Below are positions 36,495 to 59,186 of a stretch of 63,425 bases of DNA, one piece after another. The position numbers and the translations under genes were made by a program. Origin of the DNA: an uncultured Gemmatimonadota bacterium (GTDB lineage Bacteria; Blakebacterota; Blakebacteria; Blakebacterales; Blakebacteraceae); contig CAZNUA010000020.1 of the NCBI GenBank assembly GCA_964576115.1, positions 1-63,425 on the forward strand. The letters run 5' to 3'. Under the pieces are notes generated by a model. It saw only the letters and a list, made by a program, of their open reading frames with translations. It was not told the DNA's origin and did no database searches. Positions within the stretch are counted from its first letter, which is position 1. The number at the start of each line of letters is the position of its first letter.

Positions 36495-36574
36495 AGACTG
36501 TCACAGGAGCTTTCACGCTCAAGCGGACGAGAAGACATATCCGGCCTATCCATGTACATGCGAGTGTGGGGTCA

Positions 36575-39227: not shown

Positions 39228-39458
39228 CTACTTCACTGATGGTGAGATAAATAAATCCAGGAGATAGGAGAAGTGCACGGCGGTATGCGTATAGCGCACA
39301 CCGGAATCCAATCGTGTCAGGAACAGACTCCGCAAGGAAACACCAAAACTGCTCCGTCTGGTGAATCGCCACTCTTTACCGAACAGCACCTGAACACCGA
39401 GCCCGAGAGACTTATCAGCGTCGATGAATCCTCCGTCTGAACGGACGTCTTCCTTCAC
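39228..39458 (-). pseudogene. Beta-barrel-like fragment, probable split C-terminus of the upstream gene
   Basis: GLGVQVLFGKEW, FGVSL strand patterns; overlaps stop of 39455..40126. Confidence 0.35.
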
Positions 39459-40126
39459 CCTACCGGCAAGCCAATGATGACTACAAAAGAGCCTAGAGTT
39501 GAAGACCTGCTGAAAGCGGCCAGTCCCAGGCCGGCATGGATATGGATGTATCGGCCTGCATGAGCTGTACTCAGTGTTATCGTAGTCGTCCGGCCTTCCT
39601 GAACAGCGATGGCGAGAGCCCGAATGATCCTTCCCGTTCCAAGTTGGTAAAGATCTTCAAGGCTGTTTGCATCACTCTCAACTGTCTGCTCTACCCTGGC
39701 TGTTTCAACATCTACGAGACGTAAATGGAGGGAATACAACTCACCAATCCTGGTTACACTTCCCGTAACCATTTTTTGCACTCCCAGAATCCGACCGACC
39801 TGGAGAACACATTCCTCGGTCGTGCAGGCGCCCGAATATTGAAAGCCCTGCTCTTCAAGAATCGTCACCATACGTTCCCGTTCAACGACGGTGAAAATCG
39901 GCTCCTCAATCATCCGTGCCCGGAGGCGCTCGGTCATGGCCTGAGCATCCCCCCGATCCAGGTTGATCGCACCCAATTCGAGCACTGCAACGTAGACCGG
40001 TTCCTGTCGCAGAAGAGATGGATTCGGGGATGATAATTTCTCTGACAGATTATGAACTTCCTCGCCCTGAATTGGAGCAACCGACAGGACGTGAAGAAGG
40101 CATACCAAGAAAAGGAGTGTTCTCAT
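39455..40126 (-). CDS. CsgG/HfaB-like exported protein
   Basis: Signal peptide; VAVLEL, TVVERERM..ILEEQGFQ.SG.C, VGRILGV, GSVTRIG, LRLVDVET. Confidence 0.75.
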   Translation of the reverse strand: MRTLLFLVCLLHVLSVAPIQGEEVHNLSEKLSSPNPSLLRQEPVYVAVLELGAINLDRGDAQAMTERLRARMIEEPIFTVVERERMVTILEEQGFQYSGACTTEECVLQVGRILGVQKMVTGSVTRIGELYSLHLRLVDVETARVEQTVESDANSLEDLYQLGTGRIIRALAIAVQEGRTTTITLSTAHAGRYIHIHAGLGLAAFSRSSTLGSFVVIIGLPVG

Positions 40127-41663: not shown

Positions 41664-43574
41664 ATGTCATCAGAACTTGAGCAGGTTCCCGAACCGTCGC
41701 GCCGAATTTACGAGCTGACGGCACTGTACGAGATCAGTCGGATCCTGCTCGCTTCCCCCACTCCCGAACAACTGGCCTTCGATGCCCTGACGGCCTCGAT
41801 GGGGCTGACCGGTTCGCAGTGGGGGATCATGTGGCGGGCCGGAGCCCCACCGGGAACCCTGCATCACCTGCGCAGCTGCGGCCGCCCCGCCCCCGCTGAA
41901 TCTCTCTTTACTCTTCCCCCGGAGTGGGTCGATCTCCTGACCGACCGGCAACAACCGGTTATTCTGGCCGATGGCCCCGAAAGGGCCGGAACCGGAGTCG
42001 CGGCCCGCGGCCGGGAACCTCCGGCTTCGCTGGCCGGAATCGGAGCCGAGATGCTGTTGCCGCTCTCCGAACGCGGCTCCTTTCTCGGGCTGATGGCCCT
42101 GGGCCCCAACCCGCTCGGTCGCGCTCCCGATCCCTTCCTCTCAGATCTGCTCGCTTCAGTAGCGCAACTCATTGCCATCGCGCTCGGTCGACAGAGCCGC
42201 ACTCCCGAAGCCGCTCTCGAACAGGTTCCGCCCACCATCCAGGCCTGGCGTCGACAGTACCCGATCTTAGGTGAGATCGTGGGGGAAAGCCAGTCGGTTC
42301 TCGATCTCTACGAACACCTCACGACGGTGGCTGCTTCCTCCTGTACGGTCCTGCTCGAAGGCGAAACCGGCTGCGGTAAAGAACTGGCGGCTCGGGTCCT
42401 GCACGGCCTCAGCCCTCGCCACGACGGCCCATTTATCGAGGTCGACTGCGGCGCCATACCCGAAAACCTGATCGAATCCGAACTCTTCGGGCACGAGAAG
42501 GGGGCCTTTACCGGCGCCGCCAGCTCACGCCGCGGCGTTTTTGCCCTGGCCGACGGCGGTACCCTCTTTCTCGACGAGGTGGCCAATCTGCCGCTGAAAA
42601 CCCAGAATCGCCTGCTGCGCGTGTTGCAGGAGCGCCGCTTCCGCCCCGTCGGAGGGGAAGAAAGTCTCGATGTCGACGTGCGCGTTGTGGCGGCCTCGAA
42701 CCGGAGTCTGCGCGAAGCGGTGCGCGAGGGCACTTTCCGCGAGGATCTTTTCTACCGGCTCTACGTCTACCCCATCCGGATCCCGCCCCTGCGCGACCGG
42801 CGGGATGACATCCCCGGCCTGATCGCCTTTTACCTGGAAAAATGCGCCCGCGACAACGATCTGCCGGTGCCGCTGCTGCCCGAGGAATTCGTCGAGCATC
42901 TGGTCCAGCACGATTTCCCCGGTAACGTGCGCGAGCTGAGGCATCTGGTCGAACGCTCCCTGCTTCGCTCCACCGGCCGGGAGTATCTGAGCCTGGAAGC
43001 GCTCGAAGAAGCCTTGAGCCGCACTCCGGCTGCAGCTCCCGATCCGACCGAGATCGTTCCCGACGAAGAGATTCCCGAACCGGTGCCTGCGGTCGAAACC
43101 GAACCCGAAACCGTATCCGGGCCGGATGGCACAGTCGAGTGGCCCGGCAGGGCCGGTGTGGAACGCGGCGTCTGGGTAGTGGATGAACTGCGCCGGCAGC
43201 GCTTCAACGTCAAGGCTACCGCCGAACGGCTGACCGCTCTGGCTCACGCCCGACCCGACAATCCGCCTCCCCTGACCGACCGCAGCAGCCTGACCTACTA
43301 CTTCCAGGTCGAATGTTTCCGTCACTACCTCGAACAGGGCGGTAACCTGAACCAGGCAGCGAATGCGATCGTGGGCGACGCGATCCGGTTTACCGATACC
43401 GTGCGCCGGCGCATGGCCGGTTACCTGGACTCGGCCGCCCTTGTCCTGGCCGACTGCAACAGCGAAACCGAAGCCCGCGAGGTGCTGCGCAGCAAGTTCC
43501 TGAAGCTGCCCGAAGATTACCTGACGGTGCTCGATCGCCTGGCCGAGCACCTCTGGGCGCTCAAAGACACGTAA
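41664..43574 (+). CDS. Sigma-54-dependent activator (GAF, AAA+, extended C-terminal HTH region)
   Basis: [50 protein letters not shown]-terminal GAF-like domain. Confidence 0.94.
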
Positions 43575-44643: not shown

Positions 44644-44764
44644 CCAACAGCAACCAGACGAGCGAACGAGAAGTGCCGGCAGTTTGGCTGCCGTCCACCC
44701 CATCAGACAGAAAGTCGGGAAAGAAAAGACCTGTAAATCCAGAGGCCTGCAAGGAGGCCCACCG

Positions 44765-45766
44765 ATGGCTCACAGCCGACCTGTTCATATCGGACGTGAG
44801 AAGCCGCTCTTCGCCCTGTTCATCCTGCTCTTGATCCTTCCGGGGTGTCCCGATGGCAATCCCCCCGAGAACACCGAAATCAGCCGTCTGGAAGTCTACG
44901 ATCCCGCCCTCGATGAGTGGCAGACAATGACGCACATGGTCGAGCCGCGCAGCACCGCCGCGGCGGCCGTGATCGAGGGCAAACTCTATGTTGTCGGCGG
45001 TCGTGACATGAAGCGCGGCATCGGCTCGATGAACGTGCTCGAAATCTACGATCCCGCCACCGATTCCTGGACACATGGGGCGAACATGCCGACGAAACGA
45101 TGGGGCCCCGCCGCAGTGAACTTCAAAGACGAGCTGTGGGTCATGGGCGGAGCGCTCGCCTTCGATATTTACTACGACATCGTGGAAATCTATAACCCCG
45201 CCACCGATTCCTGGCGTACCGGCGAGGCGATGGACGTAGGCCGCTACAGACCCACGGTCGGGGTCATCAACGGCCGGATTTTCGTGGCTGGCGGCATGAG
45301 TGCCGGGGGAACCGACGTCGACGCCTTCGAGATCTGGGATCCGACCTACAACCAGTGGCTGACGACCGACGATATGCCAGTGGCCCGCGGGCAGGCCGCC
45401 TACGGGGTCTGGGGTGACACCCTCTATGTTGCCGGGGGCTTCCGGTGGCTCAGTGCGACCGAGAAAGAAACTCTCGATCGGTTCGATACCTATAGCGACG
45501 GTATCGGATGGCGGACAGGTCTGGCGGACATGCTGCTGGCCCGTGGTGAGACCGCCTCGGGGATGATCAACGGCAAGCTTTACGTTGTGGGCGGTATCAC
45601 CGAGACCGAAGAGAGTATGGTGTTCCACGACCGGCTCGATATCTATGACGTCGCCACCGATACGTGGACCACAGGCGCGCCGTCGGACACCCTGCGAGCC
45701 GAGGCTGCGGCTGGAGTCATCAATGGCAAGCTCTACGTCGTGGGGGGATATAACAGGAAGTGGTAA
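44765..45766 (+). CDS. Kelch-repeat lipoprotein (tandem paralog)
   Basis: LPGC lipobox; six Kelch blades colinear with the preceding gene; AGGAGG RBS. Confidence 0.92.
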   Translation: MAHSRPVHIGREKPLFALFILLLILPGCPDGNPPENTEISRLEVYDPALDEWQTMTHMVEPRSTAAAAVIEGKLYVVGGRDMKRGIGSMNVLEIYDPATDSWTHGANMPTKRWGPAAVNFKDELWVMGGALAFDIYYDIVEIYNPATDSWRTGEAMDVGRYRPTVGVINGRIFVAGGMSAGGTDVDAFEIWDPTYNQWLTTDDMPVARGQAAYGVWGDTLYVAGGFRWLSATEKETLDRFDTYSDGIGWRTGLADMLLARGETASGMINGKLYVVGGITETEESMVFHDRLDIYDVATDTWTTGAPSDTLRAEAAAGVINGKLYVVGGYNRKW

Positions 45767-45822: not shown

Positions 45823-47487
45823 ATGTCCCAGAGAAGAACCTTTCCTTCTCGCCTGATAGCGGTCGCAGTGGCCGGCATGGCGCTCTCGGCGGGTTTCGCA
45901 GCGGGTCCCCGTTCCCTGAAGGCCCAGGCGGCCGAAGAACAGATGCCCGCCCTATTCACCCGGTCCGAGGCGGGGGTGGTTCTCACCCTGCAGGACGCAG
46001 TGCAGTTGGCGCTGGATGAGTCCTTCGACCTCTACCGCCTGCAGGAAAAGTACCTGCAGTTGAACTACGGTCTGGAGACAGCCCGTCGGAGCCTGCGCAC
46101 CCGGGTGCTATTTTCTTCGATCCTGCCCCGGATCCAGGAGGGCTTCAAGAATTACCTCTACACCGACTTCGCGGGGACAATCAGTCTGAGCCCCTTCGAC
46201 GAGGCTATCCGCCAGGCCGCGGCCGGGATTTCGATCGTCCAGCCTCTGATCACCAACGGCCGGATCAGCCTGAACACCAGGTTGACCGCCTATCAGCGTT
46301 CGATGAAGAAACTGCCCCGCGGCACAACAGCCAACCTGCGTTACGTCATGCCGCGGGTGGCCCTTGAGTACAGCCAACCGCTGTTTCAGTACAATGACGT
46401 CAGGGGCCAGCTCGAGTCGGCCACTCTCGATCTCGAGGCTCTGCAGCTCAGCTACACCGAGGTCGAACTGGCCCGGATCAACGAGATCAGCGAGGCCTTT
46501 TTCCGGCTTTATGCCGCCCAGCATCTTCAGCAGATCGAAGCCGACACATGGCTGCAGCTGCAGCAGGCCCTGGCCGCGACCGAGCGCAAATACGAACTCG
46601 GTATGGTCTCCGAACTCGAAAAACTCGGTCTGGAGGTGGAGTTCCGCAACGCCCGTGACCGGCTCCTGCAGGCCGCCCACGATCTGGAAGCCGAACAACT
46701 GGCGTTCAAGCGGGCGGTCGGGATCGATGTCACCGAATCAATCTGGGTCTCTACACGGGATGACTTCACCCCCATTGCGGTCGAAGTCGATCGCGCAGTC
46801 AGGCTGGCTTTGGAGAACCGCAGTGACGTGCGGCAGGCCCGGATCGAGGTCGAGAAGACCGACCTGGAGATACGCCGGGTGGTGAGTTGGGGGCGGCCCG
46901 ACCTTCAGTTCAACCTGGCCTATGACGTGTCGGGCAACTCCACTATCGGGGAGTCGCTGCTCGGCCGCAGTGATCCATGGGGCGATCATCTCTCGGCCGG
47001 ATTCAAGGGTGACAACTCCCTGGCCAGCACCAACGTGAGCCTGACCCTGAACGTTCCCCTTTTCGACTGGCGCACCAATGATTCCCGGGTCCAGAGGCTC
47101 ATGTCCGAACGCCGGGTTCTCGAACGCGAGACGTTTGAAGCCGAGGCCGAACTGCGTCGGCAGGTACTCGAGCGGATCGACGGACTCGAGAGCGCCATGG
47201 AGCGTACAGGCCTGCAGGCACAGAACCGCACAGCAGCACGGGCCGGCTACGAGATCAGCCTCGAACTCTTCGAGAAAGGAGAGATCACCTACACCGAGAT
47301 GCTGTTCGCGCAGAACCGTTTCCTGCAAACCGAACAGATGTATTCAGCGGCGACGATCGACTACGAAATGGCCAAGGCACGTCTGCGCGAGATTACCCTG
47401 TGGGACTGGGAGACCGGGCAACCGGTGCGGCAGCAGACAACGCCGCCCGAACCCTTCGGACGGCGCCGGGAAACGGGCGGCAGATAG
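45823..47487 (+). CDS. TolC family outer membrane efflux protein
   Basis: LTLQDAVQLAL, YSQPLF, KYELGMVSELE, ALENRSD, LTLNVPLFDW, FEKGEIT. Confidence 0.88.
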   Translation: MSQRRTFPSRLIAVAVAGMALSAGFAAGPRSLKAQAAEEQMPALFTRSEAGVVLTLQDAVQLALDESFDLYRLQEKYLQLNYGLETARRSLRTRVLFSSILPRIQEGFKNYLYTDFAGTISLSPFDEAIRQAAAGISIVQPLITNGRISLNTRLTAYQRSMKKLPRGTTANLRYVMPRVALEYSQPLFQYNDVRGQLESATLDLEALQLSYTEVELARINEISEAFFRLYAAQHLQQIEADTWLQLQQALAATERKYELGMVSELEKLGLEVEFRNARDRLLQAAHDLEAEQLAFKRAVGIDVTESIWVSTRDDFTPIAVEVDRAVRLALENRSDVRQARIEVEKTDLEIRRVVSWGRPDLQFNLAYDVSGNSTIGESLLGRSDPWGDHLSAGFKGDNSLASTNVSLTLNVPLFDWRTNDSRVQRLMSERRVLERETFEAEAELRRQVLERIDGLESAMERTGLQAQNRTAARAGYEISLELFEKGEITYTEMLFAQNRFLQTEQMYSAATIDYEMAKARLREITLWDWETGQPVRQQTTPPEPFGRRRETGGR

Positions 47488-47633
47488 GTGTCCGGACCGG
47501 GCAGAAAAAGTGAGCGGGAGCACCCGGCCGTGACCTGCCTGGCACCCCCGCTCGATATGACCGCACCCTGGTCTCTGGAGGTCGGACCCTGCGTTTCGGG
47601 TTCAGAATCCGCAGGTGACGGTCAGAACCGCTG

Positions 47634-48134
47634 CTACTCCTGCAGCTCCTCGCCCATCGGGGCCCGGCGCGGAGCTTCCTTCTCCTGCAGTTCCTCGCCC
47701 ATCGGGGCCCGTCGCGGAGCTTCCTTCTCCTGCAGCTCCTCACCCATCGGCGCCCGTCGCGGAGCTTCCTTCTCCTGGAGCTCCTCACCCATCGGCGCCC
47801 GTCGCGGAGCTTCCTTCTCCTGGAGCTCCTCACCCATCGGCGCCCGTCGCGGAGCTTCCTTCTCCTGCAGCTCCTCACCCAGCGGGGCTCGACGCGGAGC
47901 TTCCTTCTCCTGCAGTTCCTCACCGATCGGCGCCCGGCGCGGAGCTTCCTTCTCCTGCAGCTCTTCGCCTACCGGGGCCCGGCGCGGGGCCTCCTTCTCC
48001 TGCAGTTCCTCACCGACGGGAGCCCGTCGGGGTGCTTCCTTCTCCTGGAGCTCCTCGCCCATCGGAGCCCGGCGCGGAGCTTCCTTCTCTTCCAGTTCCT
48101 GGTCCTTGTGGACCGGCTTGCGCGGCTCGTCCAT
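47634..48134 (-). CDS. Tandem-repeat peptide, 10 x 15 aa; candidate multicore precursor
   Basis: 11-aa head, ten (Q/E)EL(E/Q)EKEAPRRAP[MVIL]G units, terminal EELQE; AAGGGGG RBS; sigma-54 promoter upstream; mostly synonymous differences between DNA units. Confidence 0.85.
   Translation of the reverse strand: MDEPRKPVHKDQELEEKEAPRRAPMGEELQEKEAPRRAPVGEELQEKEAPRRAPVGEELQEKEAPRRAPIGEELQEKEAPRRAPLGEELQEKEAPRRAPMGEELQEKEAPRRAPMGEELQEKEAPRRAPMGEELQEKEAPRRAPMGEELQEKEAPRRAPMGEELQE
47637..48101. repeat. 45-bp coding tandem repeat, about 10.3 copies
   Basis: Unit GGAGCTTCCTTCTCCTGCAGCTCCTCRCCCATCGGSGCCCGKCGC with scattered variation; no spacers. Confidence 0.97.
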
Positions 48135-48180
48135 TGTAATACCCCCTTATGGCGTATGTGGGACTCGCACCCGAAACAAC

Positions 48181-48195
48181 GCAATCATTGTGCCA
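48181..48195 (-). promoter_or_regulatory. Sigma-54 (-24/-12) promoter of the repeat-peptide gene
   Basis: Minus strand TGGCAC-AATGA-TTGC, exact GG-N10-GC spacing, 46 bp upstream of the ATG. Confidence 0.85.
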
Positions 48196-48331
48196 GTCTG
48201 TCAGGAGCAATTCCCGATAGCGCCTGAAGTCGCTGCTGGCGGGCCTCGAGGCCCGATCCCGGGCCTTCCCTCCGGGTCTGTATCCGGACTCCGCCGAATG
48301 TGGATAACTCCCGATGGTGAGGAATTCGTGC

Positions 48332-48371
48332 CTGAGTGTGGAATTCCAGTACGCACTGAGTGTGGAATTCC
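48332..48371. promoter_or_regulatory. Direct repeats, candidate upstream activator sequences
   Basis: CTGAGTGTGGAATTCC at 48332 and 48356 (24-bp period), with degenerate copies near 48299-48328. Confidence 0.55.
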
Positions 48372-48392
48372 CCTTCCCGGAGCCGTTCGGCC

Positions 48393-49865
48393 GTGAAACG
48401 GTACGAGCTGCAGCTCGACGCGGGATCGGAGACCCTGGGCGAGGTCATGACCTTCATGCGATCATCCCTGGGCGGTCATCTCAAGGCCGGGGTGATGCTC
48501 ACGGTCGAACTGGTCGTCGAGGAACTGGTCACCAACGTTCTCAAACACGGCTATACCGAACACGGCGGACCGGTCCGGGTCGAGTTCCAGATTGCCGGGG
48601 ACTACTGCCTCTTTATTCTCGCCGATCGGGCTCCGACCTTCGATCCCACCCGCCTCACCGGTCTGCCGGCCGACCGCACCGAGGGCGGTCGAGGGCTGCC
48701 GCTGGTGCGCGAACTCGTCGGCGAACTGCGTTACGAACGCACTCTGGAGGGCTGGAATATCACCACCTGCACCTTCGCTTTCCCCGCTGCAGCCACCGAC
48801 GACTGCAGTCAGACCGCATCGGTCGAGCTCCCCTCTCCACTCGATGCCCCGAATCTGAAACCCGGCGTGACACTGACGACTCTCAAAGAAGGAGCGGTTC
48901 TGGTCGAAGGCCCCGGTCTGGACAGCTGGATCACCGATGAGGGCACAGCCACCGTACTCGAGGTCTGTGACGGGCGTCCGTCCGAGGAGATCGCCGCCGG
49001 GCTCAACGAACGTTTCAACTGGGGCCTGAGCGGGGCCGACGTGCGCAGTCTGCTCGAACGTTGGGCCACATGGGGCTATCTCGAAGGCACGCCGACGCGC
49101 TCCGAACGCCTCGTGCGGGCCGATCCCGCTCCCCTGCTCAGAATTCTGCGCCCTCTCACGCGCCTCTACGGCCGCCGCTCCACCGCCCTCGCAGCGGGCC
49201 TGCTGGCCGCGGCCGCACTGGTTCTGACCGTGGTACACGGCCCCCGCGTTCTGGCTGCCTACGGCCAGATCGCCCGGCTGCACTCGGTGTGGGGAGCGGC
49301 TCTGGTCATCCTCGGGTACTACCTGGGGTACTCGGTCACGGCTTTCTTCCACGAGCTCGGGCACGCCCTGGCCGTATACCGGCATGGCGGCGAGGTGCCC
49401 GAGATCGGCATCAGGAGGAACTTCAATTTCTTCGTCCTGGCCAACCGGGATATCCTCCTGACACCCGCCGACCGCATCTGGTACTATGCGGGCGGACTGC
49501 TCAGTGACACGGTGTGGTGGTTCGGTGCGTGGGTGTGGTGGCTGGCGGCGCCCGGCCCTCTGCCGCTGTTCCTGCTGGTCCCGCAGACCGTTTATTTCCT
49601 GCTCTACGCCTGGGCTCCGTCGGGGTACAGCGACGCGGCCCTGGTACTGCGCGAAGCGGTCGGCTGGACACCGCTTTCGAGGATCCGACGGGGTACCGAC
49701 TGGTCGAAGCGGTGGAAAGAAGCCCCCGGCGCCCAGCGCGCGCTCGAGATCGCGCGCCTGACCCTGGGAGCAGCTCTGATCGTCTTCATCGCCGTCCACG
49801 ATCTCTACCTCATCGCCCTCTACATCATCTACCGTCTGCTCAGAAAGGGGCTGAACCGGTTGTGA
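48393..49865 (+). CDS. Fusion: RsbW-like HATPase, PqqD/RRE-like domain, M50-like membrane metalloprotease
   Basis: EELVTNVLKHGY, DRAPTFDP, EGGRGL; EVCDGRPSEEIAAGL...LLERWATWGYL; FFHELGHA, YAGG, multiple TM helices. Confidence 0.75.
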   Translation: MKRYELQLDAGSETLGEVMTFMRSSLGGHLKAGVMLTVELVVEELVTNVLKHGYTEHGGPVRVEFQIAGDYCLFILADRAPTFDPTRLTGLPADRTEGGRGLPLVRELVGELRYERTLEGWNITTCTFAFPAAATDDCSQTASVELPSPLDAPNLKPGVTLTTLKEGAVLVEGPGLDSWITDEGTATVLEVCDGRPSEEIAAGLNERFNWGLSGADVRSLLERWATWGYLEGTPTRSERLVRADPAPLLRILRPLTRLYGRRSTALAAGLLAAAALVLTVVHGPRVLAAYGQIARLHSVWGAALVILGYYLGYSVTAFFHELGHALAVYRHGGEVPEIGIRRNFNFFVLANRDILLTPADRIWYYAGGLLSDTVWWFGAWVWWLAAPGPLPLFLLVPQTVYFLLYAWAPSGYSDAALVLREAVGWTPLSRIRRGTDWSKRWKEAPGAQRALEIARLTLGAALIVFIAVHDLYLIALYIIYRLLRKGLNRL

Positions 49866-50821
49866 TGCGTCGAAACGAAACGAGTTCCCAGACTCTGAAG
49901 CTGCTTGCGTCGGGCGCGGTGGTTGCGCTCCTCGCGTTCGTCACGGCGGGGATCGTGAGCGGCTGCGGCGGGCAGGCACCGGAGCAGACCGGGGAGGCTG
50001 CCGCAGCCGCCGAAGCGGAACAGGTGCCGGCCAATGCCGGTCGGCGCCTGCAACCCGAGGTGCCCCACTCCCCGACCCGGCGCCCCTCGCATGAGACCGT
50101 TCCGGACCGCGGCGGGATTCGGACCGCCGGGGGCGGCGAGCGCACTTTCACCACCGTGCTCACCTCCCGCCGGGCCGTGACGGTCCTGAGCCGCATCGCC
50201 GGCACGGTCACCGCACTCGAGGTTGAAGAGGGTGACCGGGTGCGGGGTGGCGGCGTGCTGGCGCGCCTCGACGACCGCTCCCGGCAGATCGCCCGCGACC
50301 GGGCCGCCGCCGAAGCCCGGCGCACCCGGGCCCTCTATGAGCGCAACCGCGAGGCCTTCGCCTCGAATACTGCGGTCCGGGTGGTGTCGGCACTCGAACT
50401 CGAGGTCTCCGAGGCCGAATACCTCAAGGCGCAGGCCGATTCGGCCCTGGCCGAACTCGAGTTGAGCTACACCCGCATCACCGCCCCCTTCGCCGGGGTG
50501 GTGACCGAACGCTTCATCGACGCGGGAGAGTGGATCGCGGCCCGGGAGGATCTGTTTACCGTGGCCGAGCTGGGCCGCCTCTGGGCGGTCTTTATCGTAC
50601 CGCCCGAAGTCGACGCCGACCTGCAGTCAGGGCAGATCGTGGCCCTGCGGATCGGCAACGGCGAGATCACCCTCGACGCCGACGGGCGCCTGGTGCGCAC
50701 CAGCCCCGTGCTCGATCCGGCCAGCGGGGGGGTGAAGATCACGATCGAGATCACCAACTCCCAGAGCCTGTACAAACCGGGTATGACCGCCACCATCGAT
50801 TTCGGCGCGCCCGGAGGCTGA
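49865..50821 (+). CDS. Efflux membrane fusion protein (periplasmic adaptor)
   Basis: SRIAGTV..VEEGDRV..G.VLARLD, ITAPFAGVV, PGM; VSGC possible lipobox; TGATG overlap. Confidence 0.88.
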   Translation: MRRNETSSQTLKLLASGAVVALLAFVTAGIVSGCGGQAPEQTGEAAAAAEAEQVPANAGRRLQPEVPHSPTRRPSHETVPDRGGIRTAGGGERTFTTVLTSRRAVTVLSRIAGTVTALEVEEGDRVRGGGVLARLDDRSRQIARDRAAAEARRTRALYERNREAFASNTAVRVVSALELEVSEAEYLKAQADSALAELELSYTRITAPFAGVVTERFIDAGEWIAAREDLFTVAELGRLWAVFIVPPEVDADLQSGQIVALRIGNGEITLDADGRLVRTSPVLDPASGGVKITIEITNSQSLYKPGMTATIDFGAPGG

Positions 50822-50834
50822 GGACTCATCAGCC

Positions 50835-52892
50835 GTGGCCGAGGTCCCCGACTACCCGAGACTGCGCGAGGACATCACCTTCTCGCGGGTGGTGATGCGC
50901 GGCGAGGAAACCTTCATCGCCAAGGACCCGGTCCGGCGCAAGTACATGCAGTTCGACCGGCTGGGGCGGCGCATCTGCGAGCTCTGCAACGGCCGCAACT
51001 CCCTTGCGGACATGGTCGAGCAGCTGGGGCGCGATTTCCCCGAGTGGGATTTCGATCTCGAGTACGTGACCGAGTACGTCGAGCACCTGATCGACATGCG
51101 CCTGATCTTCCGCGACCGGATGGAATACAACGTCCTGATGATGGAAAAGGTCCGGCGCGAGCGCGAGCACCACAACACCCTGCTTCACATGACCTTCCCG
51201 GCCGTGGACCCGCACAAGTTCTTCGCCTGGCTGATGGACCGCCTGCGCTGGATAGCCTCGAAACCCTTCATGATCTTCTACTGGGTTTTCGTGATCGGCT
51301 CCTACGCCGTGCTCGTCGGCAATCTCGAGGAAACCTGGGCGGGGCTGTCTGGTTTTTACATCTTCACCGGCTGGTCGCTGGGCGAGATCGTCGGTCTATA
51401 TCTCGTCATTCTGCTGATCATGGTCATCCACGAGTTCGGCCACGGAATGACCTGCGTGTATTACGGCGGGGAAGTACATCAGATGGGCTTCCTGCTCATC
51501 TACCTGATCAACCCCGCCCTCTACTGCAACGTGTCCGACTCCTACCGCTTCCCCCGCAAGCTGCACCGGCTGATGGTGGTCTACGGGGGACCGCTGGTGG
51601 AGATGTTCATCGGGGCCGCCTTCGTCTATGTCTGGTGGCTCTCGGATCCGAAGCTGCTGATCCACGACTTCGCCTTCAAGATCGTGATCTTCTCCTCGAT
51701 CTCGGCCTGGATCTTCAACATGAATCCCCTGCTCAAATACGACGGGTACTACATCCTGAGCGAGATGGTCGACATCCCCAACCTGCGCAAGCGGGCCTTC
51801 GGCTATCTGGGTTTTGTCTGGAAATCGTTCTTCAACCTGCCGGCCGACAAACCCCCCGGCGGCCGGCGCGAGCAGCGTATCTACCTGCTCTATTCGATCG
51901 CCGCTTTCATCTACTCGATCATGATCTTCTCGATCATCTACGGTCTCTTGAAACGCTGGTTCGTAGGGGGACTGGCCGCCTTCGGGTGGATTCTGCTGGT
52001 GGCCACCATGTACCTGATCCTGCGCAGACCGATCGGCAAGGGAGTGGATTTCGTGAAGCTGGCTGCCATGGACCGCTCCGGATTCATCCGGCGCAACATC
52101 CCCGTCGTCATCACCATCCTGGCCCTGCTCCTCGTCCTGCCGGCCGTGATCAGAACCCCGACCGTGGACCGGCGCCTGGCGATCCTGGAACCCTACTACC
52201 AGGTCAACGTCGAAGCCGCGGCGCCGGGGTACGTGCGCGAGCTGACTGTGAATACCGGCGACGATATCGCTGCGGGGCAGGTCCTGGCCCGCATCGAGAG
52301 TACGGTCCTGGAGCGTGAACTGATCGGGGTGCGCCACGAGATCGAGCGCACCCGGGCTCTGGCCGGAGAGGCCTCGTCCCGCGGCGACGCTTCGGCCGTG
52401 AGCGGCTACCGCGCTGAACTGGCCCGCCTGACCGAGAGCGAGGACCTGATTCTGGATCGCCACGAAGCTCTGGAGGTGCGCTCACCCCTCGAAGGCCGGG
52501 TCCTCAATCCCCACGTCTCGGAGGTTGAACACCGCTTCGTGCGCGAGGGTGAGATGCTGATGCAGATCGGGCGGACCGATTCGCTGCGGGTGCGTCTCGA
52601 GATCCCCGAACGGAACATGGCCGACGTCGAACTCGGCTCGCGGGTCAAATTCAAGCCGGCCTCGCGGCCCGGCGAAGTGGTGCGGGGACGGGTGGTGGTG
52701 ATCGATCTGGCCGGTGAAGCGGCCGTCGACGAAGAAGCATTCTACGGAGTTGAGATCGTCATGGATAATTCCGCCCTGGGCCTGGTGCCCGGCCAGCGCG
52801 GCAAGGTGCGCCTCTATGGCAAGAGCCGATCGCTGTGGGGGCAGCTGATCCGCTCCGCCATTCAGACCTTGAGACTGGACTTTTTCATTTGA
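50835..52892 (+). CDS. PqqD/RRE-like, M50 (site-2) zinc metalloprotease, HlyD adaptor fusion
   Basis: PRLREDI...KDP...ELCNGRNSLAD; IHEFGHG, GGPLVE, FNMNPLLKYDGYY; APGYV, VRSPLEGRV, PGQRG. Confidence 0.88.
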   Translation: MAEVPDYPRLREDITFSRVVMRGEETFIAKDPVRRKYMQFDRLGRRICELCNGRNSLADMVEQLGRDFPEWDFDLEYVTEYVEHLIDMRLIFRDRMEYNVLMMEKVRREREHHNTLLHMTFPAVDPHKFFAWLMDRLRWIASKPFMIFYWVFVIGSYAVLVGNLEETWAGLSGFYIFTGWSLGEIVGLYLVILLIMVIHEFGHGMTCVYYGGEVHQMGFLLIYLINPALYCNVSDSYRFPRKLHRLMVVYGGPLVEMFIGAAFVYVWWLSDPKLLIHDFAFKIVIFSSISAWIFNMNPLLKYDGYYILSEMVDIPNLRKRAFGYLGFVWKSFFNLPADKPPGGRREQRIYLLYSIAAFIYSIMIFSIIYGLLKRWFVGGLAAFGWILLVATMYLILRRPIGKGVDFVKLAAMDRSGFIRRNIPVVITILALLLVLPAVIRTPTVDRRLAILEPYYQVNVEAAAPGYVRELTVNTGDDIAAGQVLARIESTVLERELIGVRHEIERTRALAGEASSRGDASAVSGYRAELARLTESEDLILDRHEALEVRSPLEGRVLNPHVSEVEHRFVREGEMLMQIGRTDSLRVRLEIPERNMADVELGSRVKFKPASRPGEVVRGRVVVIDLAGEAAVDEEAFYGVEIVMDNSALGLVPGQRGKVRLYGKSRSLWGQLIRSAIQTLRLDFFI

Positions 52893-52937
52893 GATCGGCT
52901 CTCGAACGCGAGTGTCATTGCGGAATGGTGCCTGAAG

Positions 52938-54848
52938 ATGACCGAGAATAACGAGAACCTGCAACGGGAACTGGACGCCGCCTACCGCCAGCTCGAGCAG
53001 ACGGCCAGCCGGCTGCTCCTGGTCAATCAGGCGGGTATGCTGACGGCCTCGACCCACGACCCGCGCGTCATCGCCCGGGAACTGCTGGCCAGCATCCTCG
53101 ACAGCGTCTTCGCCAGGAGCGGCCTGGTTATCCTGTATTCGCGCGGGGGAGCCGTTTTTGATGTGCTGGCTCACCAGGGGCTCAGCGAGGCCGAGCTCGC
53201 GGCCTTTGAGCAGAGCAACACCGAGGCGACCGCGCTCTGGATCAGCTCGCTGCGCAAAGCCCCGGTGACCCGCGGTGACATCACGGGGGCCGAAGAATGG
53301 GAAGCCGGACTCGATGAGCCGGCCGGGGCGGTCTACATGCCTCTGCTGATCGAGGACGAACTCGTCGGCGCCCTGGTGGTCGGCGACAAGACCACCGCCG
53401 ACGAGTACGACCGGGGCGAAGTGAGCTTCCTGGCCAATCTCGGTCATCACGCCGCCGTGGCTTTGAACCACGCCTCCCTCTACAGCCAGCTTGAGAAGAA
53501 GCTGCGCGACCTCGACACCCTGCTCACCATCAGCCAGGAGATCACCTCCACCCTCGACCTCGACCGGATCCTGAAAACCATCACCACCATGGCCTCGGCG
53601 CTCTCCGAACTGGAATACTGCGCCATCGGCCTGACGCGCGGCGGGCGTCTGAAGATCGACTCGATCGGCGGCACCGAACCCTCCAAGGACGAAAAGGAGT
53701 CGCTGCGCAACCTGATGGAGTTTGTCAGCCTGGCCGGCACCGAAATCTCGGCCACCGCCGCCGAGTTGCCCGAGGGTGAGGGCCGCGACCTGTTCCGCGA
53801 GCACTTCGAGAGTACTGAAACCGGTGGTTTCTGGGGCCTGCCCCTGAAAGACGACCAGGGTGTCATGGGGGCCTACTGCCAGCTGCGGGCCCGCGGTATC
53901 CCCGATGAAGAAGAACAGGAACTGCTGCGCATCCTCGGCAACCAGGCCTCGGTCGCCATCCGCAACGCCGAACTCTACAACCAGGTACCCCTGATCGGTT
54001 TCCTCGAACCCCTGCTCGAAAAACGCCGCAAACTCTGGGAGGCGGGTCGCCGCAAGTGGCGCACGGCCGCAGTCTGGACGGTGGTCGCGGGCGCTCTGCT
54101 GCTGCTCGTGCGCCTGCCCTACCGCACCGGCGGCGACGCGGTGGTCTTCCCCGGCCAGCGCCTGCAGCTGCGCACGCCCGTGGCGGGGATCGTGGATGAG
54201 GTCACCGCTCTGGAAGGCGAGGTGGTCGGCCCCGATCGCCCGGCCGGGCGCATTCTGAGCCTCGAGGCCGAGATGGAATACCGCGACCTGCAGAACGCCC
54301 TGGAGCGGGCCCGGCGCGAGGAAGCTGCCGCGCGCGCTCGCAACGATCTCTTCGCCGCCCAGCTGGCCGAGACCGACCGCGTTTCCCTGACCGCCCAGCT
54401 GACCCTGCTGAGCCGTGAACTCGAGGCCGCCACTATCGCCCCCCCCTTCCCGGCCGTGATCCTCACTCCCCACGTCGAAGAGCGTAAGGGGGACTACCTG
54501 GCTTCGGGCGATACCTTCTGTGAGGTCGGCACCCTCGATTCGCTGCGCATCGAGATCGCTCTGCCCGAGAAGGACTGGCATGCGGTCGAACTGGGCCAGC
54601 CGGTGAAGATGAAGTTCTACGCCTACGCCGAGCGCACCTTCACCGGAACGGTGGACATCCTCGCCCCGGCCGCTCTGCAGCGCAGGGACGACAAGCGGGT
54701 CCTGATCGCCACCGTGCGCATCCCCGCCCCCGAGGGACTGCGTCCCGGCATGAACGGGGTCGGCAAGGTCCGCCTCGGCCGCCGCAGCCTGCTCTGGTTC
54801 GTGGCCCGCCCCTTCGTGCGGTTCGTGTCGCTGCGGTTGTGGTTCTGA
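52938..54848 (+). CDS. GAF-GAF-TM-HlyD membrane fusion protein
   Basis: MPLLIEDELVGAL...AVALNHASLY; LGNQASVAIRNAELY; TM; TPVAGIV, IAPPFPAVI, LRPGMNG. Confidence 0.85.
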   Translation: MTENNENLQRELDAAYRQLEQTASRLLLVNQAGMLTASTHDPRVIARELLASILDSVFARSGLVILYSRGGAVFDVLAHQGLSEAELAAFEQSNTEATALWISSLRKAPVTRGDITGAEEWEAGLDEPAGAVYMPLLIEDELVGALVVGDKTTADEYDRGEVSFLANLGHHAAVALNHASLYSQLEKKLRDLDTLLTISQEITSTLDLDRILKTITTMASALSELEYCAIGLTRGGRLKIDSIGGTEPSKDEKESLRNLMEFVSLAGTEISATAAELPEGEGRDLFREHFESTETGGFWGLPLKDDQGVMGAYCQLRARGIPDEEEQELLRILGNQASVAIRNAELYNQVPLIGFLEPLLEKRRKLWEAGRRKWRTAAVWTVVAGALLLLVRLPYRTGGDAVVFPGQRLQLRTPVAGIVDEVTALEGEVVGPDRPAGRILSLEAEMEYRDLQNALERARREEAAARARNDLFAAQLAETDRVSLTAQLTLLSRELEAATIAPPFPAVILTPHVEERKGDYLASGDTFCEVGTLDSLRIEIALPEKDWHAVELGQPVKMKFYAYAERTFTGTVDILAPAALQRRDDKRVLIATVRIPAPEGLRPGMNGVGKVRLGRRSLLWFVARPFVRFVSLRLWF

Positions 54849-54952: not shown

Positions 54953-55846
54953 ATGCGAATCCGGACCTCGAAGGCCCCGATCATCCTTGCCCTGGTCCTC
55001 TTGATCACCACACCGGAAGCAGTCTCGGCCGGCACCGTCCAGGTCGAATCCGAGCCGGATGCAGCCATCATCGACACCCTGATATCGGTCGGCGAGAACC
55101 GTCTTCACTTCCAGATCATCGAGGGCCGCAAGCCGGCCATCCTCCTGGAATCGGGCGGGGGCTACAACCTGGAGCAGTGGATGATGCTGGCCCCGTGGCT
55201 GGCCCGCGAGACCGGAGCGGCAATCATCACCTACGACCGGGCCGGCTTCGGGCAGAGCGACCTGCCCGAGGTCCCGCATGACATGAGACTCGAGGCCGGT
55301 TGGCTCTGGAACGGGCTCGAACAGCTCGGGCTGGACTCAGACCTCGTCCTGGTCGGGCATTCCTTCGGGGGCTGGATGATCCGCCTGGAAGCGAACGAGC
55401 ATCCCGAGGCCGTGCGCGGTATGGTGTTCATCGATCCCTTCACGACCGAGTTCGTCGATCGGCTCGGGGTGGAGTACCTCGATGATCACCCCATGGCGGG
55501 CAGGCTCCCCTTCGACACTTCCGATCCGGCCAGTCTCACGACCCTGCAGCGGGCCCAGGTGCGCATGGTCGGTGACGGGCTGGCGCCGAAGATAGCCATC
55601 ATGCGGGACACGAGGATTCCGGAGGGCATTCCGGTCGAGGTCATCACCTGCGCCCGGCAGTTTCTCCCGAAAGTGGAGGAACATCAGGCCTGGCACACGG
55701 CTCACGAGCATCTGGCGGAGTCGATCCCGGGCGCAGTCCTCATCCCGGCCGAAAACAGCAATCACCTGGTCCCGCTCTTCCAACCCGGCCTCGTCGTCGA
55801 GTCGGTCACCCGCGTCTATGGTCGCATAACCGAATCGGGGAAATAA
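54953..55846 (+). CDS. Exported alpha/beta hydrolase
   Basis: YDRAGFGQS, VLVGHSFGG nucleophile elbow, SNHLVP catalytic His; signal peptide. Confidence 0.9.
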   Translation: MRIRTSKAPIILALVLLITTPEAVSAGTVQVESEPDAAIIDTLISVGENRLHFQIIEGRKPAILLESGGGYNLEQWMMLAPWLARETGAAIITYDRAGFGQSDLPEVPHDMRLEAGWLWNGLEQLGLDSDLVLVGHSFGGWMIRLEANEHPEAVRGMVFIDPFTTEFVDRLGVEYLDDHPMAGRLPFDTSDPASLTTLQRAQVRMVGDGLAPKIAIMRDTRIPEGIPVEVITCARQFLPKVEEHQAWHTAHEHLAESIPGAVLIPAENSNHLVPLFQPGLVVESVTRVYGRITESGK

Positions 55847-55881: not shown

Positions 55882-58605
55882 CTATTCCTCACTCAGGATC
55901 CGGGCCGGTTCGAGTCGCCACAGCCGGCGGGCCGGCAGAAATCCGGCCGCCAGTAACGTCACCAGAACCGTCAGGGGCACGAAGGTCAGGGTCAGGGGAT
56001 CGGTCCCCGGCACTCCGAAGAGATAGCTCTTGAGCAGGCTGCTCCCGGCTACTGCGGCGAGCAGACCGGCCACCAGGCCGATCGCTCCGACCGTCAGGGT
56101 CCGACTCACGACCAGCCGCCGGAGGATCCCTGAATCGGCTCCCAGGGCCATGCGGATGGCCAGTTCGCGAGCCCGCTGAGCGACGGCCCGGGCCACCACG
56201 CCGAAGATTCCCACCGCGGTCAAAATGATCGCCACCAGGCCGAAACAGACCACCATCAGGGCCCGGTAGCGCTGGTCGGTGGCCGTTTCTGCAACGACCC
56301 GGTCCATAATCCGGGCTTCGGCCAGCAGAACCTCCGGAAAGGCACTGCGGGCGGCCGCTTCGAGCTGCGGGATGAGTTCGGCCGGGTCCCCGTTGACGCG
56401 GGCCGTGAGAACCAGCCGAATTCCGTTGAGCCCGGGATTCTGCAGGTAGGGGCGGTAGATGGGGGAGCGGGGTTCGGAATCGAGGCCACCGTAGCGCACG
56501 TCTTCCACCACCCCGACCACGGTGTGCCATTCGGGGACCCGATCGAAACGCAGACGCTGGCCCACCGCCGGGCGGTCGGGCCACAGATCCTCGGCTGTTG
56601 AGCGGGAGACGATCACGACCGGTTCGGCTCCGGGTGCGTCGTCGGGTGTGAAGTACCGGCCGGCCACCAGGGGAATCTCCATGACCTCGTGGTAGTCGGG
56701 CAGAACGATGTCGTAACTCAGGATGGGCAGCTGACTGTTTTCCGGACCTGTGTTCGTCTCGATTTCCACCTCATCGCTCCACAGGCTCATGAGCAGGGGC
56801 ATCGACCAGCTTGCCGTGGCCGCCTGCACCCCGGGCACGGCCTCGATCCGATCGATCATGTCGAGGTAGGCCGCTTCCCGTATCTCGGTATTCAGGCCGC
56901 GGACATCAATGGCGCCTCGCAGAGCGACGAGGTTGTCGGGTTCAAAGCCCATGCTTTCAGATGTCAGGTTCAGGAGCGTCCGGGTGAAGAGCCCCCCGGT
57001 CACGAGCAGAACGACCGTCAGGGCCACTTCGAGTCCGATGACCAGGTTGATCCGCCTCTGCCCGCCCTCGATCAGGCGCTGACCGTGCGTGTGCAGGCCG
57101 GAACGGCCGCGCCGGCGGATGAGTGTCAGAGCGGGCAGCAGGCCGAACCCGATCCCGGCCGAGATCCCCGCCGCGCTCGAGAAGCCCAGCACGGCCAGGT
57201 TCACCCGCACGTTCTCGATGGCCGAGGTGGCCGGGGCGAAGGCCGTCAGGACGCGCGTCGCCCCGAAGGCCAGGATGATACCGACCAGACTGCCGAACAA
57301 CCCGAGGAGCACACTCTCAGTCAGCAGTTGGCGCACGATCCGTGACGTGCCGGCGCCGATGGCGGCCCGGGTGGCGATTTCGGCCCGCCGTCCTTCCGCT
57401 TCGCCCAGGATCAGGGTGGCGACGTTGCCGCAGGCGATCAGCAGCAGGAAGAGGGAGGGTACAGCCAGCAGCAGGAGCCGGGCGGGCAGGCCGGCCACTT
57501 CGAGTTGATCGCGCCGCGCCAGGTGCACCCGGAACTCATCAACGGGCGTATCGCCCCGCACCAGCGCCTCGATCTCGGCCCAGGCCGCTTCCAGACTCAC
57601 CCCCCGCTTGAGCCGGGCCAGGGCCTCGAAACTCCAGCCCGAAGTTGCGGTGTACCAGTTGGAACCGTAGTTGTGCCCGGTCGGGACCCATGCCGGGCGC
57701 TCACCGGTGTCCCGGGGCGAGAGCAGGCCCTGCGTATTCTCGAAGAGATCGGTTGTGAACCTGAATTCGGGGGGCACCACCCCGATGATGGTATAGGGGC
57801 GGTTTTCGATGAGAACCGTGGTGCCGAGCACATTCGGATCGGCCCCGAACCGCTCCCGCCAGAGAGCATCTCCAAGAACCACCACCCGGGTTAATTCAGG
57901 CCCCACCTCCTCGGGCGCAAACCAGCGTCCGAGCTGCGGCTGGATGCCGGCCACGTCAGCCAGCTCGGCCGTGCCCTCCCCGATCATGAAGTTCATCGGA
58001 TCGCCCCGGCCCTGGATCGAACTCCCCGCATAGAAGTAGAGGGCGATGTTCTCCAGACTCGAAGCATGCTTCTTGAGTTCCTGGTACTCGGGGTGGTAGA
58101 GCGACTCGGTCACCCACTCGCCGCGATCGTTCAGGCGTTCGGTCCAGATCGAAACAAGCCGGTCGGCTTCGGGGTAGGGAATGCTGCGCAGCAGGACCGC
58201 GTCGATGATGCTGTAGATGGTTGTGGTGGCGCCGATGCCCAGACCCAGGGTAGCCACGGCGACGAGAGTGAAGAGGGGTTTGCGCCGCAGGGTCCGGAGG
58301 CCGAAGCGGAGGTCGTGGCGGCATGTCTCCGCGAATGAGGCGCGCCCGTGATCGGCCCGGGCAGCCATTGTGAGGAAGAGTTCGGGATCGGGGTGGCGCT
58401 TGATGCGCGGCCAGCGCACGATGAACCCGACGAGCTGGCGCCAGTACCAGCGCCGGGCCTGATACGCACCCGATCGCTCTATCCGGTCGCGGAACATCTC
58501 TTCGAGTTCCGGCCCGCAGGCCTCCATCTTCTTGTGCCGGAGCACGAGGTTCAAAAGAGTGCGGGGGATGCGTGGCGGCCGGATGTTCCGGGTCTGATGT
58601 GTCAT
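55882..58605 (-). CDS. ADOP-family duplicated ABC permease
   Basis: TLGLGIGATTTIYS, LIACGNVA, RELAIRMALGA, LPARR; ATGA coupling to padR. Confidence 0.93.
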   Translation of the reverse strand: MTHQTRNIRPPRIPRTLLNLVLRHKKMEACGPELEEMFRDRIERSGAYQARRWYWRQLVGFIVRWPRIKRHPDPELFLTMAARADHGRASFAETCRHDLRFGLRTLRRKPLFTLVAVATLGLGIGATTTIYSIIDAVLLRSIPYPEADRLVSIWTERLNDRGEWVTESLYHPEYQELKKHASSLENIALYFYAGSSIQGRGDPMNFMIGEGTAELADVAGIQPQLGRWFAPEEVGPELTRVVVLGDALWRERFGADPNVLGTTVLIENRPYTIIGVVPPEFRFTTDLFENTQGLLSPRDTGERPAWVPTGHNYGSNWYTATSGWSFEALARLKRGVSLEAAWAEIEALVRGDTPVDEFRVHLARRDQLEVAGLPARLLLLAVPSLFLLLIACGNVATLILGEAEGRRAEIATRAAIGAGTSRIVRQLLTESVLLGLFGSLVGIILAFGATRVLTAFAPATSAIENVRVNLAVLGFSSAAGISAGIGFGLLPALTLIRRRGRSGLHTHGQRLIEGGQRRINLVIGLEVALTVVLLVTGGLFTRTLLNLTSESMGFEPDNLVALRGAIDVRGLNTEIREAAYLDMIDRIEAVPGVQAATASWSMPLLMSLWSDEVEIETNTGPENSQLPILSYDIVLPDYHEVMEIPLVAGRYFTPDDAPGAEPVVIVSRSTAEDLWPDRPAVGQRLRFDRVPEWHTVVGVVEDVRYGGLDSEPRSPIYRPYLQNPGLNGIRLVLTARVNGDPAELIPQLEAAARSAFPEVLLAEARIMDRVVAETATDQRYRALMVVCFGLVAIILTAVGIFGVVARAVAQRARELAIRMALGADSGILRRLVVSRTLTVGAIGLVAGLLAAVAGSSLLKSYLFGVPGTDPLTLTFVPLTVLVTLLAAGFLPARRLWRLEPARILSEE

Positions 58606-59020: not shown

Positions 59021-59135
59021 GATTGGTTGCAGGCAAAGTGATCCGGTTGCAGGAAAAGTAACCCGGTTGTAAGAAAAGTGACCCGGTTGCAGGCAATCTG
59101 ATGCGGCTAGAGAAAATGTGACGCGGATGCAGGTG
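59021..59135. repeat. Degenerate 20-bp tandem repeat, about 6 copies
   Basis: GGTTGCAGG-like cores at 59025, 59045, 59065, 59085, 59105, 59125. Confidence 0.8.
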
Positions 59136-59186
59136 ATTGATATACTGCAACCACTATCAGATCCGCCCACGTTCAGGAGTGTATCG

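Follow-up and report, generated by a model that had tools for sequence, protein, structure and literature searches.

We analysed a 63,425-nucleotide stretch of DNA (contig CAZNUA010000020.1 of assembly GCA_964576115.1, hereafter the window) from an uncultured Gemmatimonadota bacterium that GTDB assigns to Blakebacterota. On its minus strand, at positions 47634..48134, lies an open reading frame (ORF) of 166 residues, here called REP, in which a 16-residue head (MDEPRKPVHKDQELEE) is followed by 10 x KEAPRRAPxGEELQE. Judged from the sequences of the gene, its relatives and its neighbours, the REP system is best described as RRE-dependent peptide processing with a multi-copy precursor, which would be unmodified as far as the genes show and tied to a protease-adaptor fusion. 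We give about even chances to the proposal that the cell makes REP as a disordered polyprotein, cuts it at each unit and exports the pieces. To our knowledge, a bacterial polyprotein-type peptide precursor of ten near-identical units would be unusual.

The frame runs from ATG to TAG and, as the first-pass annotation had described it from the letters alone, holds ten 15-residue units with one variable hydrophobic position, which reads, unit by unit, M,V,V,I,L,M,M,M,M,M; unit 1 differs at two more positions, by Q for E and by E for Q. Read as KEAPRRAPxGEELQE, the protein divides into 16 + 10x15 residues with nothing left over, a layout also found in three relatives with 10, 7 and 9 units, and the head is itself a degenerate (worn) unit. 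Tandem Repeats Finder reported a period of 45, 10.3 copies, 88% matches and a score of 674 at 47637-48100. The remark that the frame stops exactly where the next AAG (K) would stand was also borne out, the TAG occupying the place of the next unit's AAG (GAGGAGCTGCAGGAGTAG vs ...GAGAAGGAA).

The encoded protein has 48% charged residues, 22 Pro and no Thr, and its C-terminus is ...EELQE. It has no hydrophobic stretch, the Kyte-Doolittle mean over 15 residues peaking at -1.47, in agreement with the earlier remark that a signal peptide is lacking. AlphaFold2 returned a pLDDT of 50.9, a pTM of 0.10 and zero secondary structure from a shallow six-row alignment, and the product is predicted to be intrinsically disordered. 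REP matched no family in Pfam or NCBIfam, its top score in the ESM Atlas (0.83) lay under the level counted as meaningful, and an Rfam scan of 47300-48500 gave nothing at E ≤ 1.

Among the units, 16 of the 45 DNA columns vary, and 13 of these 16 are at codon position 3 (binomial P = 1.2e-4); for units 2-10 alone the figure is 12/13 (binomial P = 1.7e-5). The Nei-Gojobori method, pooled over unit pairs, gave a proportion of synonymous differences (pS) of 0.42 and of nonsynonymous differences (pN) of 0.035. Their ratio, 0.08, answers the dN/dS check proposed earlier with differences that are mostly synonymous. It shows constraint but cannot alone choose the strand, because the antisense frame that shares the REP wobble position scores nearly as low (0.107); what decides the strand is the promoter, together with the orthologues and the start and stop codons. 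The first-pass annotation had read the pattern as selection on the peptide rather than slippage. Selection stands, but it is not the sole process, local duplication being present as well. The units stay constant across genera while the adjoining protease falls to 55% identity; in a unit comparison, some are nearest to the similarly placed unit of another genome, and units 6-8 differ by 0-1 bases, as recent local copies do. Because cross-genome matches coexist with recent local copies, the array is old and kept by selection, with some local duplication.

Contigs of the DNA runs X1, X3 and X4, from three studies, agreed without a single mismatch with the flanks on either side and with the outer units, and broke in the near-identical central units (~47737-47851), where cover came from short, deeper pieces only. 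The array is therefore real, and its exact copy number, which depends on those central units, is provisional. In the same-genus genome G001 the array is split over two contigs (the end of C215, and C471), and therefore short-read assemblies break at this repeat.

Orthologues of REP occur in six other genomes of the same small phylum, drawn from the same genus, the same family and another family of the order. All six have a repeat array beside the same operon; counts out of seven below comprise the window locus and these six related loci, one of which (L017, in G001) stops at a contig end inside the array. A search for homologues and their copy number, as suggested at the outset, thus found arrays in seven genomes, with 7, 9 and 10 units in relatives: G004 has MTDEPRKPVFKEN.. 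followed by 10 units, G002 has 7 units and G008 has 9 units of KEAPRRAPLGGELEE, while G005 has 21-residue units (ELEEKEAPRRASVFGEEDAPV) and G003 20-residue units (ELEEKEAPRRASVFGDEGGV). Across six orthologues with 15-, 20- and 21-residue units the string ELEEKEAPRRA is invariant and the residues after it vary; this variable part is only P-x-G-E or, in two genomes, SVFGEEDAPV.

The start and stop of the sense frame are kept in all six complete orthologues and the opposite-strand frames end variably, being open only because the repeat keeps them open. On such comparisons we regard it as settled that REP is a genuine gene, on the minus strand. REP and the gene for the RRE-protease-HlyD fusion described below are found in the same 7/10 genomes of the phylum and are adjacent in 7/7; the three genomes that have neither are 63%, 85% and 96% complete. 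This co-occurrence gives weak support because the genomes are kin.

R-R-x-S is a basic-residue-directed kinase consensus. The units of L021 (4243-4593, minus; the locus of G005) and L022 (6917-7189, plus; the locus of G003) read ..EAPRRASVFG.. and so contain it, the Ser standing where the window has Pro. These units adjoin a protease with an RsbW-like HATPase_c_2 domain, which is of the Ser kinase type.

A Shine-Dalgarno-like AAGGGGG (48142..48148, minus) lies 7-8 nt before the ATG, and by eye AAGGGGG, AAGGAGG or AAGGGAG is at the same place in 7/7 loci. The sigma-54 (-24/-12) promoter TGGCACAATGATTGCG (48180..48195, minus), 61 nt before the ATG, is a full match to TGGCAC-N5-TTGC; this strict word, with a per-site chance of 1.2e-6, recurs at -61 or -60 in all seven orthologous loci, in surrounding DNA that has diverged. 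Probable activator binding sites lie at 48318..48371 (no strand assigned), with two copies of GGAATTCCACACTCAG and a third, degenerate GAATTCCTCA, 21-24 nt apart, and two or three GAATTCC[AG]CA-like words stand at -179 to -247 in 7/7 loci. The closely spaced GAATTCCRCA pair (24 nt apart) occurs only at REP in the genome, the copies on contig C119 being 258 nt apart.

The candidate activator is a sigma-54 enhancer-binding protein encoded at 41664..43574 (plus), with an AAA+ Sigma54_activat domain (PF00158, 9.1e-68) and no receiver domain. It adjoins REP in each of the four related loci that reach the expected position (L018, L020, L021 and L022), and rpoN is encoded in the genome (TIGR02395, 446.6 bits, above the cut-off). 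A sigma-70 promoter scan found none. To judge from these signals, REP is a sigma-54-dependent, monocistronic gene controlled by the enhancer-binding protein next door, which seems to regulate REP only; if this is right, such control should allow the gene to be readily switched on in a surrogate host. After the ORF, a terminator-like hairpin with a T-run (47503..47525, minus, ~110 nt beyond the stop) is weak, since 1 was found vs 0.9 expected; by eye, the orthologues at L018 and L019 have a clearer G+C hairpin and T6 in that place.

Divergently from REP runs an operon of four genes (48393-54848, plus), of which the third (50835..52892) encodes in a single protein a PqqD/RRE-like domain, an HExxH intramembrane metalloprotease and a HlyD adaptor. 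The best NCBIfam match of this fusion protein is the daptide leader peptidase NF041824 (1.5e-51; 175.7 bits vs an equivalog cut-off of 300) and the second is the YydH/LiaK epipeptide peptidase NF058609 (7.1e-12). Both models are, by their NCBIfam names, leader peptidases of peptides that are made by the ribosome and modified after translation (RiPPs). By these scores the fusion protease is a homologue, not an equivalog, of the DapP-type peptidase. Its residues H199, E200, H203, N297, P298, D303 and G304 are invariant in 34/34 homologues, and HExxH with a second zinc-ligand motif N..P....DG in membrane helices are marks of Peptidase M50 (site-2 proteases); the score against Pfam PF02163 was 23, under the cut-off of 27.2.

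In an AlphaFold2 model (pLDDT 83.4) the fusion protein begins with a domain of three strands (15-21, 24-31 and 36-40) and three helices (42-50, 57-67 and 75-87). The sequence of this RRE region matched PF05402 (0.0062) and TIGR03859 (2.6e-4), both below cut-off. For the C-terminal domain, matches to MexA, MacA and AcrA were obtained (E 1e-14). A complex prediction with residues 1-440 of the RRE-protease (34-row alignment) and residues 1-56 of REP (6 rows), run without controls, scored 0.00 and 0.00, a result given no weight here.

The first gene of the operon (48393..49865, plus; the mechanical ORF begins at 48360, and GTG 48393 is the likely start) encodes an HATPase_c_2 domain (PF13581, 2.5e-16), an RRE-like region and an HExxH membrane protease with the motif FHELGH, and matches NF041824 at 4.5e-11 on residues 194-351. 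The second (49865..50821, plus; its likely ATG at 49865 overlaps the previous stop) encodes a HlyD-type periplasmic adaptor (TIGR01730, 4.7e-36) that is probably a lipoprotein (..IVSGC). The fourth (52938..54848, plus) encodes a GAF-GAF + HlyD adaptor and is kept in all related loci and many distant ones.

Convergent with REP lies a gene for a TolC-like outer-membrane channel of the OEP type (45823..47487, plus; PF02321, 5.4e-36), and beyond it one for a Kelch beta-propeller protein (44684..45766, plus). The TolC-like gene is syntenic in L018, L019 and L020, and the Kelch gene is present in the same 3/6 related loci. Both are absent at that place in L021 and L022, where REP stands directly between activator and operon, and L017 stops short of them.

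The daptide class was found via RRE domains fused to an intramembrane site-2 protease, and precursors near such proteases have the conserved leader motif ELExMEAP; in the precursor MpaA, L-7 and M-4 are required for RRE binding/RRE-dependent processing, and MpaP, an RRE-dependent intramembrane peptidase, cleaves off the leader (10.1101/2023.03.08.531785). With this motif the REP word ELEEKEAP agrees at 6/7 specified positions and ELQEKEAP, the word of most units here, at 5/7. A six-frame translation of the genome contains no other word of the form ELxExEAP or EKEAPR.

The first-pass annotation had divided each unit into an acidic half (EELQEKE), seen as a recognition spacer flanking each core, and a basic/Pro half (APRRAP) with a dibasic RR. 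The acidic half gains as a recognition element from the invariance of ELEEKEAPRRA, the likeness to ELExMEAP and the homologous peptidase next door; the conserved block, however, extends into APRRA. Because it passes beyond the acidic half in this way, APRRAPxG is not supported as the core, the variable part being confined to the short stretch that follows the block. Nor does anything tested favour cutting at the RR. The sequence comparison and the daptide analogy together support the view that part of each unit may be a recognition element.

We can now outline how the system might work. The sigma-54 promoter and the enhancer-binding protein would drive synthesis of REP as a disordered polyprotein of about ten near-identical 15-residue units. 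In the cytoplasm, the RRE domains of the two HExxH intramembrane proteases would bind ELxEKEAP of each unit, and the proteases would cut the chain at every unit. If, by analogy with daptides, they cut after EAP, the peptides would start with RRAP-(M/V/I/L)-G. These could exit through the HlyD-type adaptors (one of them fused to a protease) and TolC, and the many copies would raise the yield of a small diffusible peptide. As to its role, our guess is a multi-copy signal or some other diffusible peptide. If this outline is true, the recognition word, by its link to RRE-dependent leader peptidases, offers a substrate that can be tested directly for a large family whose annotations say only 'putative peptide zinc metalloprotease' or 'HlyD family adaptor', and one must ask how a duct of adaptors and TolC operates when its inner-membrane partner is a protease.

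Similar loci occur in distant phyla. A scan of species-representative genomes with the fusion-protein alignment matched at least 600 stretches, of which 598/600 code for a relative; the best-scoring 80, retained here, come mostly from Acidobacteriota and Planctomycetota, with some from Zixibacteria, Verrucomicrobia, Oligoflexia and others. Of 8000 candidates that were scored, 427 belonged to the fusion-protein family at E ≤ 1e-10. At 25 of the 80 loci, genes for GAF-HlyD, HlyD and RRE-protease-HlyD lie on one strand, then comes a convergent gene for a sigma-54 activator, with a small ORF between. The small ORFs between operon and activator were picked by repeat score and by eye. Eleven of the 25 have a conserved leader and then tandem short repeats. 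Eleven others lack strong periodicity, nine being short and Lys-rich (23-53 residues) and two (L063 and L100) longer, with a family A-type leader; in the remaining 3/25 loci no convincing small ORF was seen by these means.

A strict leader search found two leader families in 14/80 loci. In one, M-x-IQKKSLI..NL..KKAI is followed by units of GTLAK, GGKNL, KQVGLS, AGVAK or GRA or by 13-residue units; in the other, M-x(1-2)-EVKIKLTDAQKAKIKEATGK..PEIRVE is followed by SIGARASGK, KAPLKANM or ASVKASMRRAAPK units. The 12-residue units of L039 contain RKAPL, close to the RRAPM of REP. Tandem-repeat ORFs were enriched in the 1.8 kb that follow the fusion gene, where they made up 32 of 1107 mechanical ORFs (13/80 loci), vs 14 of 8596 elsewhere (7 loci); an array open in several frames was counted more than once. 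Of 24 distant peptides, 15 are preceded at 35-110 nt by a -24/-12 word (GG-N8-YTGC), vs 5.2% of random 75-nt windows. None of six distant peptides reached any Pfam or NCBIfam cut-off, and related proteins in the collection searched have either no name or the label 'hypothetical'. A literature search found nothing on the REP peptide strings, the distant peptides or the gene set, most subscription journals being outside its coverage.

Several such Acidobacteriota peptides, with the two leaders and up to ~14 tandem units (SIGARASGK, KAPLKANM, GTLAK, GGKNL, KQVGLS, AAKAPAMAKKSPL), lie between the sigma-54 activator and RRE-protease-HlyD genes, all on the minus strand: L040 11107-11628, L057 10043-10627, L091 10190-10495, L097 10181-10486, L114 10044-10292, L071 10206-10511 and L107 10045-10383. 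In a locus from Pirellulales (L060 2602-3156, minus) the fusion-gene homologue is followed by a histone-H1-like Lys/Ala-rich ORF (MAKKKAAKKKAAKKKAAKK...).

The REP locus seems to be the form taken in one lineage by a wider, unannotated module, whose hosts are mostly uncultured sediment and soil phyla. We advance tentatively, as possible rather than probable, a larger proposal: that an undescribed, widespread module (sigma-54 activator, repeat or Lys-rich peptide gene, RRE/site-2-protease/HlyD fusion, GAF-HlyD, HlyD and TolC) chops a polyprotein and exports the peptides through an adaptor-TolC duct with the protease as inner-membrane partner, which would make it a new processing-coupled secretion of lineage-specific diffusible peptides. 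The peptides differ from lineage to lineage (EKEAPRRAPMG, GTLAK, GGKNL, KQVGLS, SIGARASGK and others), as would be expected for microbe-microbe signals or weapons.

Several observations count against cutting at every unit and export. The match to the daptide motif is imperfect, the K of the REP word sitting where the essential M-4 of MpaA stands. All 34 fusion homologues match the daptide peptidase model, even those beside peptides with quite different leaders, and no credible ELxxxEAP word was found in the small ORFs of the 80 distant loci or in L031 and L032. The resemblance of the words may thus be convergent, because the model match ignores peptide type and the word is missing near distant homologues. 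The conserved part of each unit could also be the product and the variable part the spacer, the reverse of our proposal. Among the conserved neighbours no modifying enzyme was found, nor any ABC, RND or MFS pump that could drive export. Finally, one metatranscriptome (RNA run X20) gave short contigs inside the ORF, 90-99% alike, that come from a relative, because their 3' flank differs; the flanks are without cover, possibly through mere divergence, and DNA carry-over is possible. These contigs of a relative's array are a weak hint of expression.

An alternative that we regard as unlikely is that REP leaves the cell, or reaches the envelope, as a largely whole protein, with at most its head removed, for a matrix, ion-binding or surface-coating role like that of repeat-rich type I secretion cargo. 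A predicted disordered protein with three HlyD adaptors and TolC beside it would suit this, and the analogous Acidobacteriota peptides, with one conserved leader and a variable repeat array, fit a single leader cut. REP, however, has no separate long leader and carries the recognition-like word in every unit; Pfam and NCBIfam scans of the cluster found no ABC exporter, C-terminal secretion signal or GGxGxD repeats; and repeat sequences that are wholly different between lineages argue against a single structural role.

We find it rather improbable that REP stays in the cytoplasm as a regulatory substrate or decoy, its sigma-54-driven synthesis and its degradation by the HExxH proteases, gated by GAF/HATPase_c_2, forming a timer or feedback with no secretion. 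This would give the three periplasmic adaptors and the TolC kept in synteny no role and would have no need of ten identical units, although it does account for an operon rich in signalling domains (GAF-GAF, RsbW-like HATPase_c_2), for a dedicated activator with an apparent REP-only regulon and the genome's only 24-nt-spaced word pair, and for a cluster without a pump. Very improbable is a stress-protective hydrophilic repeat protein (LEA- or hydrophilin-like) standing beside the operon by happenstance: REP is indeed very hydrophilic, half charged, predicted disordered and tightly regulated, but it adjoins the operon in 7/7 genomes, co-occurs with it in 7/10, matches no Pfam or NCBIfam family and has analogous peptides at the same position in distant phyla. 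That REP is not a gene at all is scarcely credible, whether as a chance-open frame, a product of the opposite strand (a 302-residue ORF at 47488-48396) or an assembly artefact, for although all six frames are open across the array, the antisense pN/pS is almost as low and contigs break inside the array, six complete orthologues keep the start codon, Shine-Dalgarno site, fixed-distance sigma-54 promoter and array-end stop while opposite frames vary, runs from three studies reproduce the array ends without mismatch, and seven genomes carry arrays.

The REP unit is almost unknown outside the phylum. A word-indexed protein search with REP had P0001 as its sole match, and an exhaustive HMMER search of 1.84 billion representatives returned 83 proteins at E ≤ 0.001. 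Among the 12 of these 83 that were examined, P0002 and P0001 alone contain the REP unit; the other ten were set aside as unrelated periodic repeats, with PRRAPLG or RRAPI words in two of them taken as chance. MshEN is the N-terminal domain of GspE/PilB-type ATPases. In P0002, a metagenome protein of 304 residues, an MshEN domain (PF05157, 1.1e-09) is directly followed by nine REP units ending in EELQE, with the variable order M,V,I,V,L,L,M,M,M that the G004 array also shows; either the fusion is real or the contig is a chimera formed at the repeat. In P0001, a metagenome protein of 150 residues on a 741-base contig, a signal-peptide-like hydrophobic stretch replaces the head before three REP units, which may reflect an assembly chimera or a secreted variant.

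Two genes downstream of the operon were considered as members of the cluster and rejected, neither being conserved after the GAF-HlyD gene in four relatives: an alpha/beta-hydrolase gene (54953-55846) and that of an ADOP permease. The latter (55882-58605, minus) is an ADOP-family duplicated MacB-like permease (TIGR03434, 1.2e-219) with no ATPase gene beside it. Elsewhere in the window, a 431-residue ORF (37827-39122, minus) with weak Hint/PT-HINT/AXH matches, all sub-cut-off, adjoins an ORF for a CsgG-like lipoprotein (39455-40126, minus; PF03783, 1.3e-10), and both lie in a stretch of lower G+C (0.57 vs ~0.65). ORFs at 36491-37843 (plus), 59118-60416 (plus) and 60421-61683 (minus) have NHL/six-bladed beta-propeller (DUF5128) matches, and just 5' of the second of these, at 59025-59093, stands a tandem repeat (20-bp x 3.5).

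How does the REP system compare with known ones? It is close to the daptide precursors and their DapP/MpaP peptidases in that the best NCBIfam match of the neighbouring protein is a daptide peptidase, an RRE-like domain stands N-terminal to a site-2-type protease, and the leader word is alike at most of its specified positions. REP differs by having no C-terminal Thr and no aliphatic or hydrophobic core, and by repeating ten times a word that daptide precursors carry once. Its cluster differs by the HlyD-fused protease, the sigma-54 control and a Gram-negative-type host with TolC; Pfam and NCBIfam scans of 13 + 10 neighbour proteins found no DUF-RRE protein, decarboxylase, aminotransferase or methyltransferase. 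By its sequence and gene content, REP is not a daptide. The YydF/YydH (LiaK) epipeptide system likewise has an HExxH membrane peptidase of a matching family (NF058609) and a small ribosomal peptide as substrate, whereas the REP cluster is without a radical-SAM epimerase and an ABC exporter and the substrate is a repeat array.

As in multi-core RiPPs, REP has repeated segments with conserved flanking recognition sequences (ten units, ELEEKEAPRRA invariant, the rest varying between genera); a known modifying enzyme was not found in the conserved set, and neither the Kelch gene nor the alpha/beta-hydrolase gene is shared by every locus. The cyanobactin PatE is a multi-core RiPP precursor, with a few differing cores and the subtilisin-like proteases PatA/PatG. 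The two systems share several cores in one precursor, conserved flanking recognition sequences and two proteases encoded nearby; the REP system has no heterocyclase, macrocyclase or other modifying enzyme, its proteases are intramembrane metalloproteases and its ten units are near-identical. Tandem-repeat precursors processed by Kex2 are known in eukaryotes, such as yeast alpha-factor and the fungal ustiloxin/dikaritin precursors. They too contain many identical short peptides with acidic and dibasic spacers and a copy number that varies between relatives, but they belong to the eukaryotic secretory pathway, whereas REP has no signal peptide, another protease class and a bacterial sigma-54/TolC context.

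Of the features of a type I secretion substrate, adaptors and TolC are present, an ABC ATPase is absent from the cluster and REP has no RTX-type repeats. The putative export route resembles the tripartite HlyD/MFP-TolC exporters (MacAB-TolC, HlyBD-TolC and the peptidase-containing ABC transporters) in its adaptor fold, that of MexA, MacA and AcrA, and in the adjacent TolC. Peptidase-containing ABC transporters couple proteolysis to export, a logic that the REP system would share. What would set the REP system apart from all these exporters is that its inner-membrane partner is a protease domain, not an ABC, RND or MFS pump, and that its three adaptors differ from one another, cytoplasmic GAF domains being present in one.

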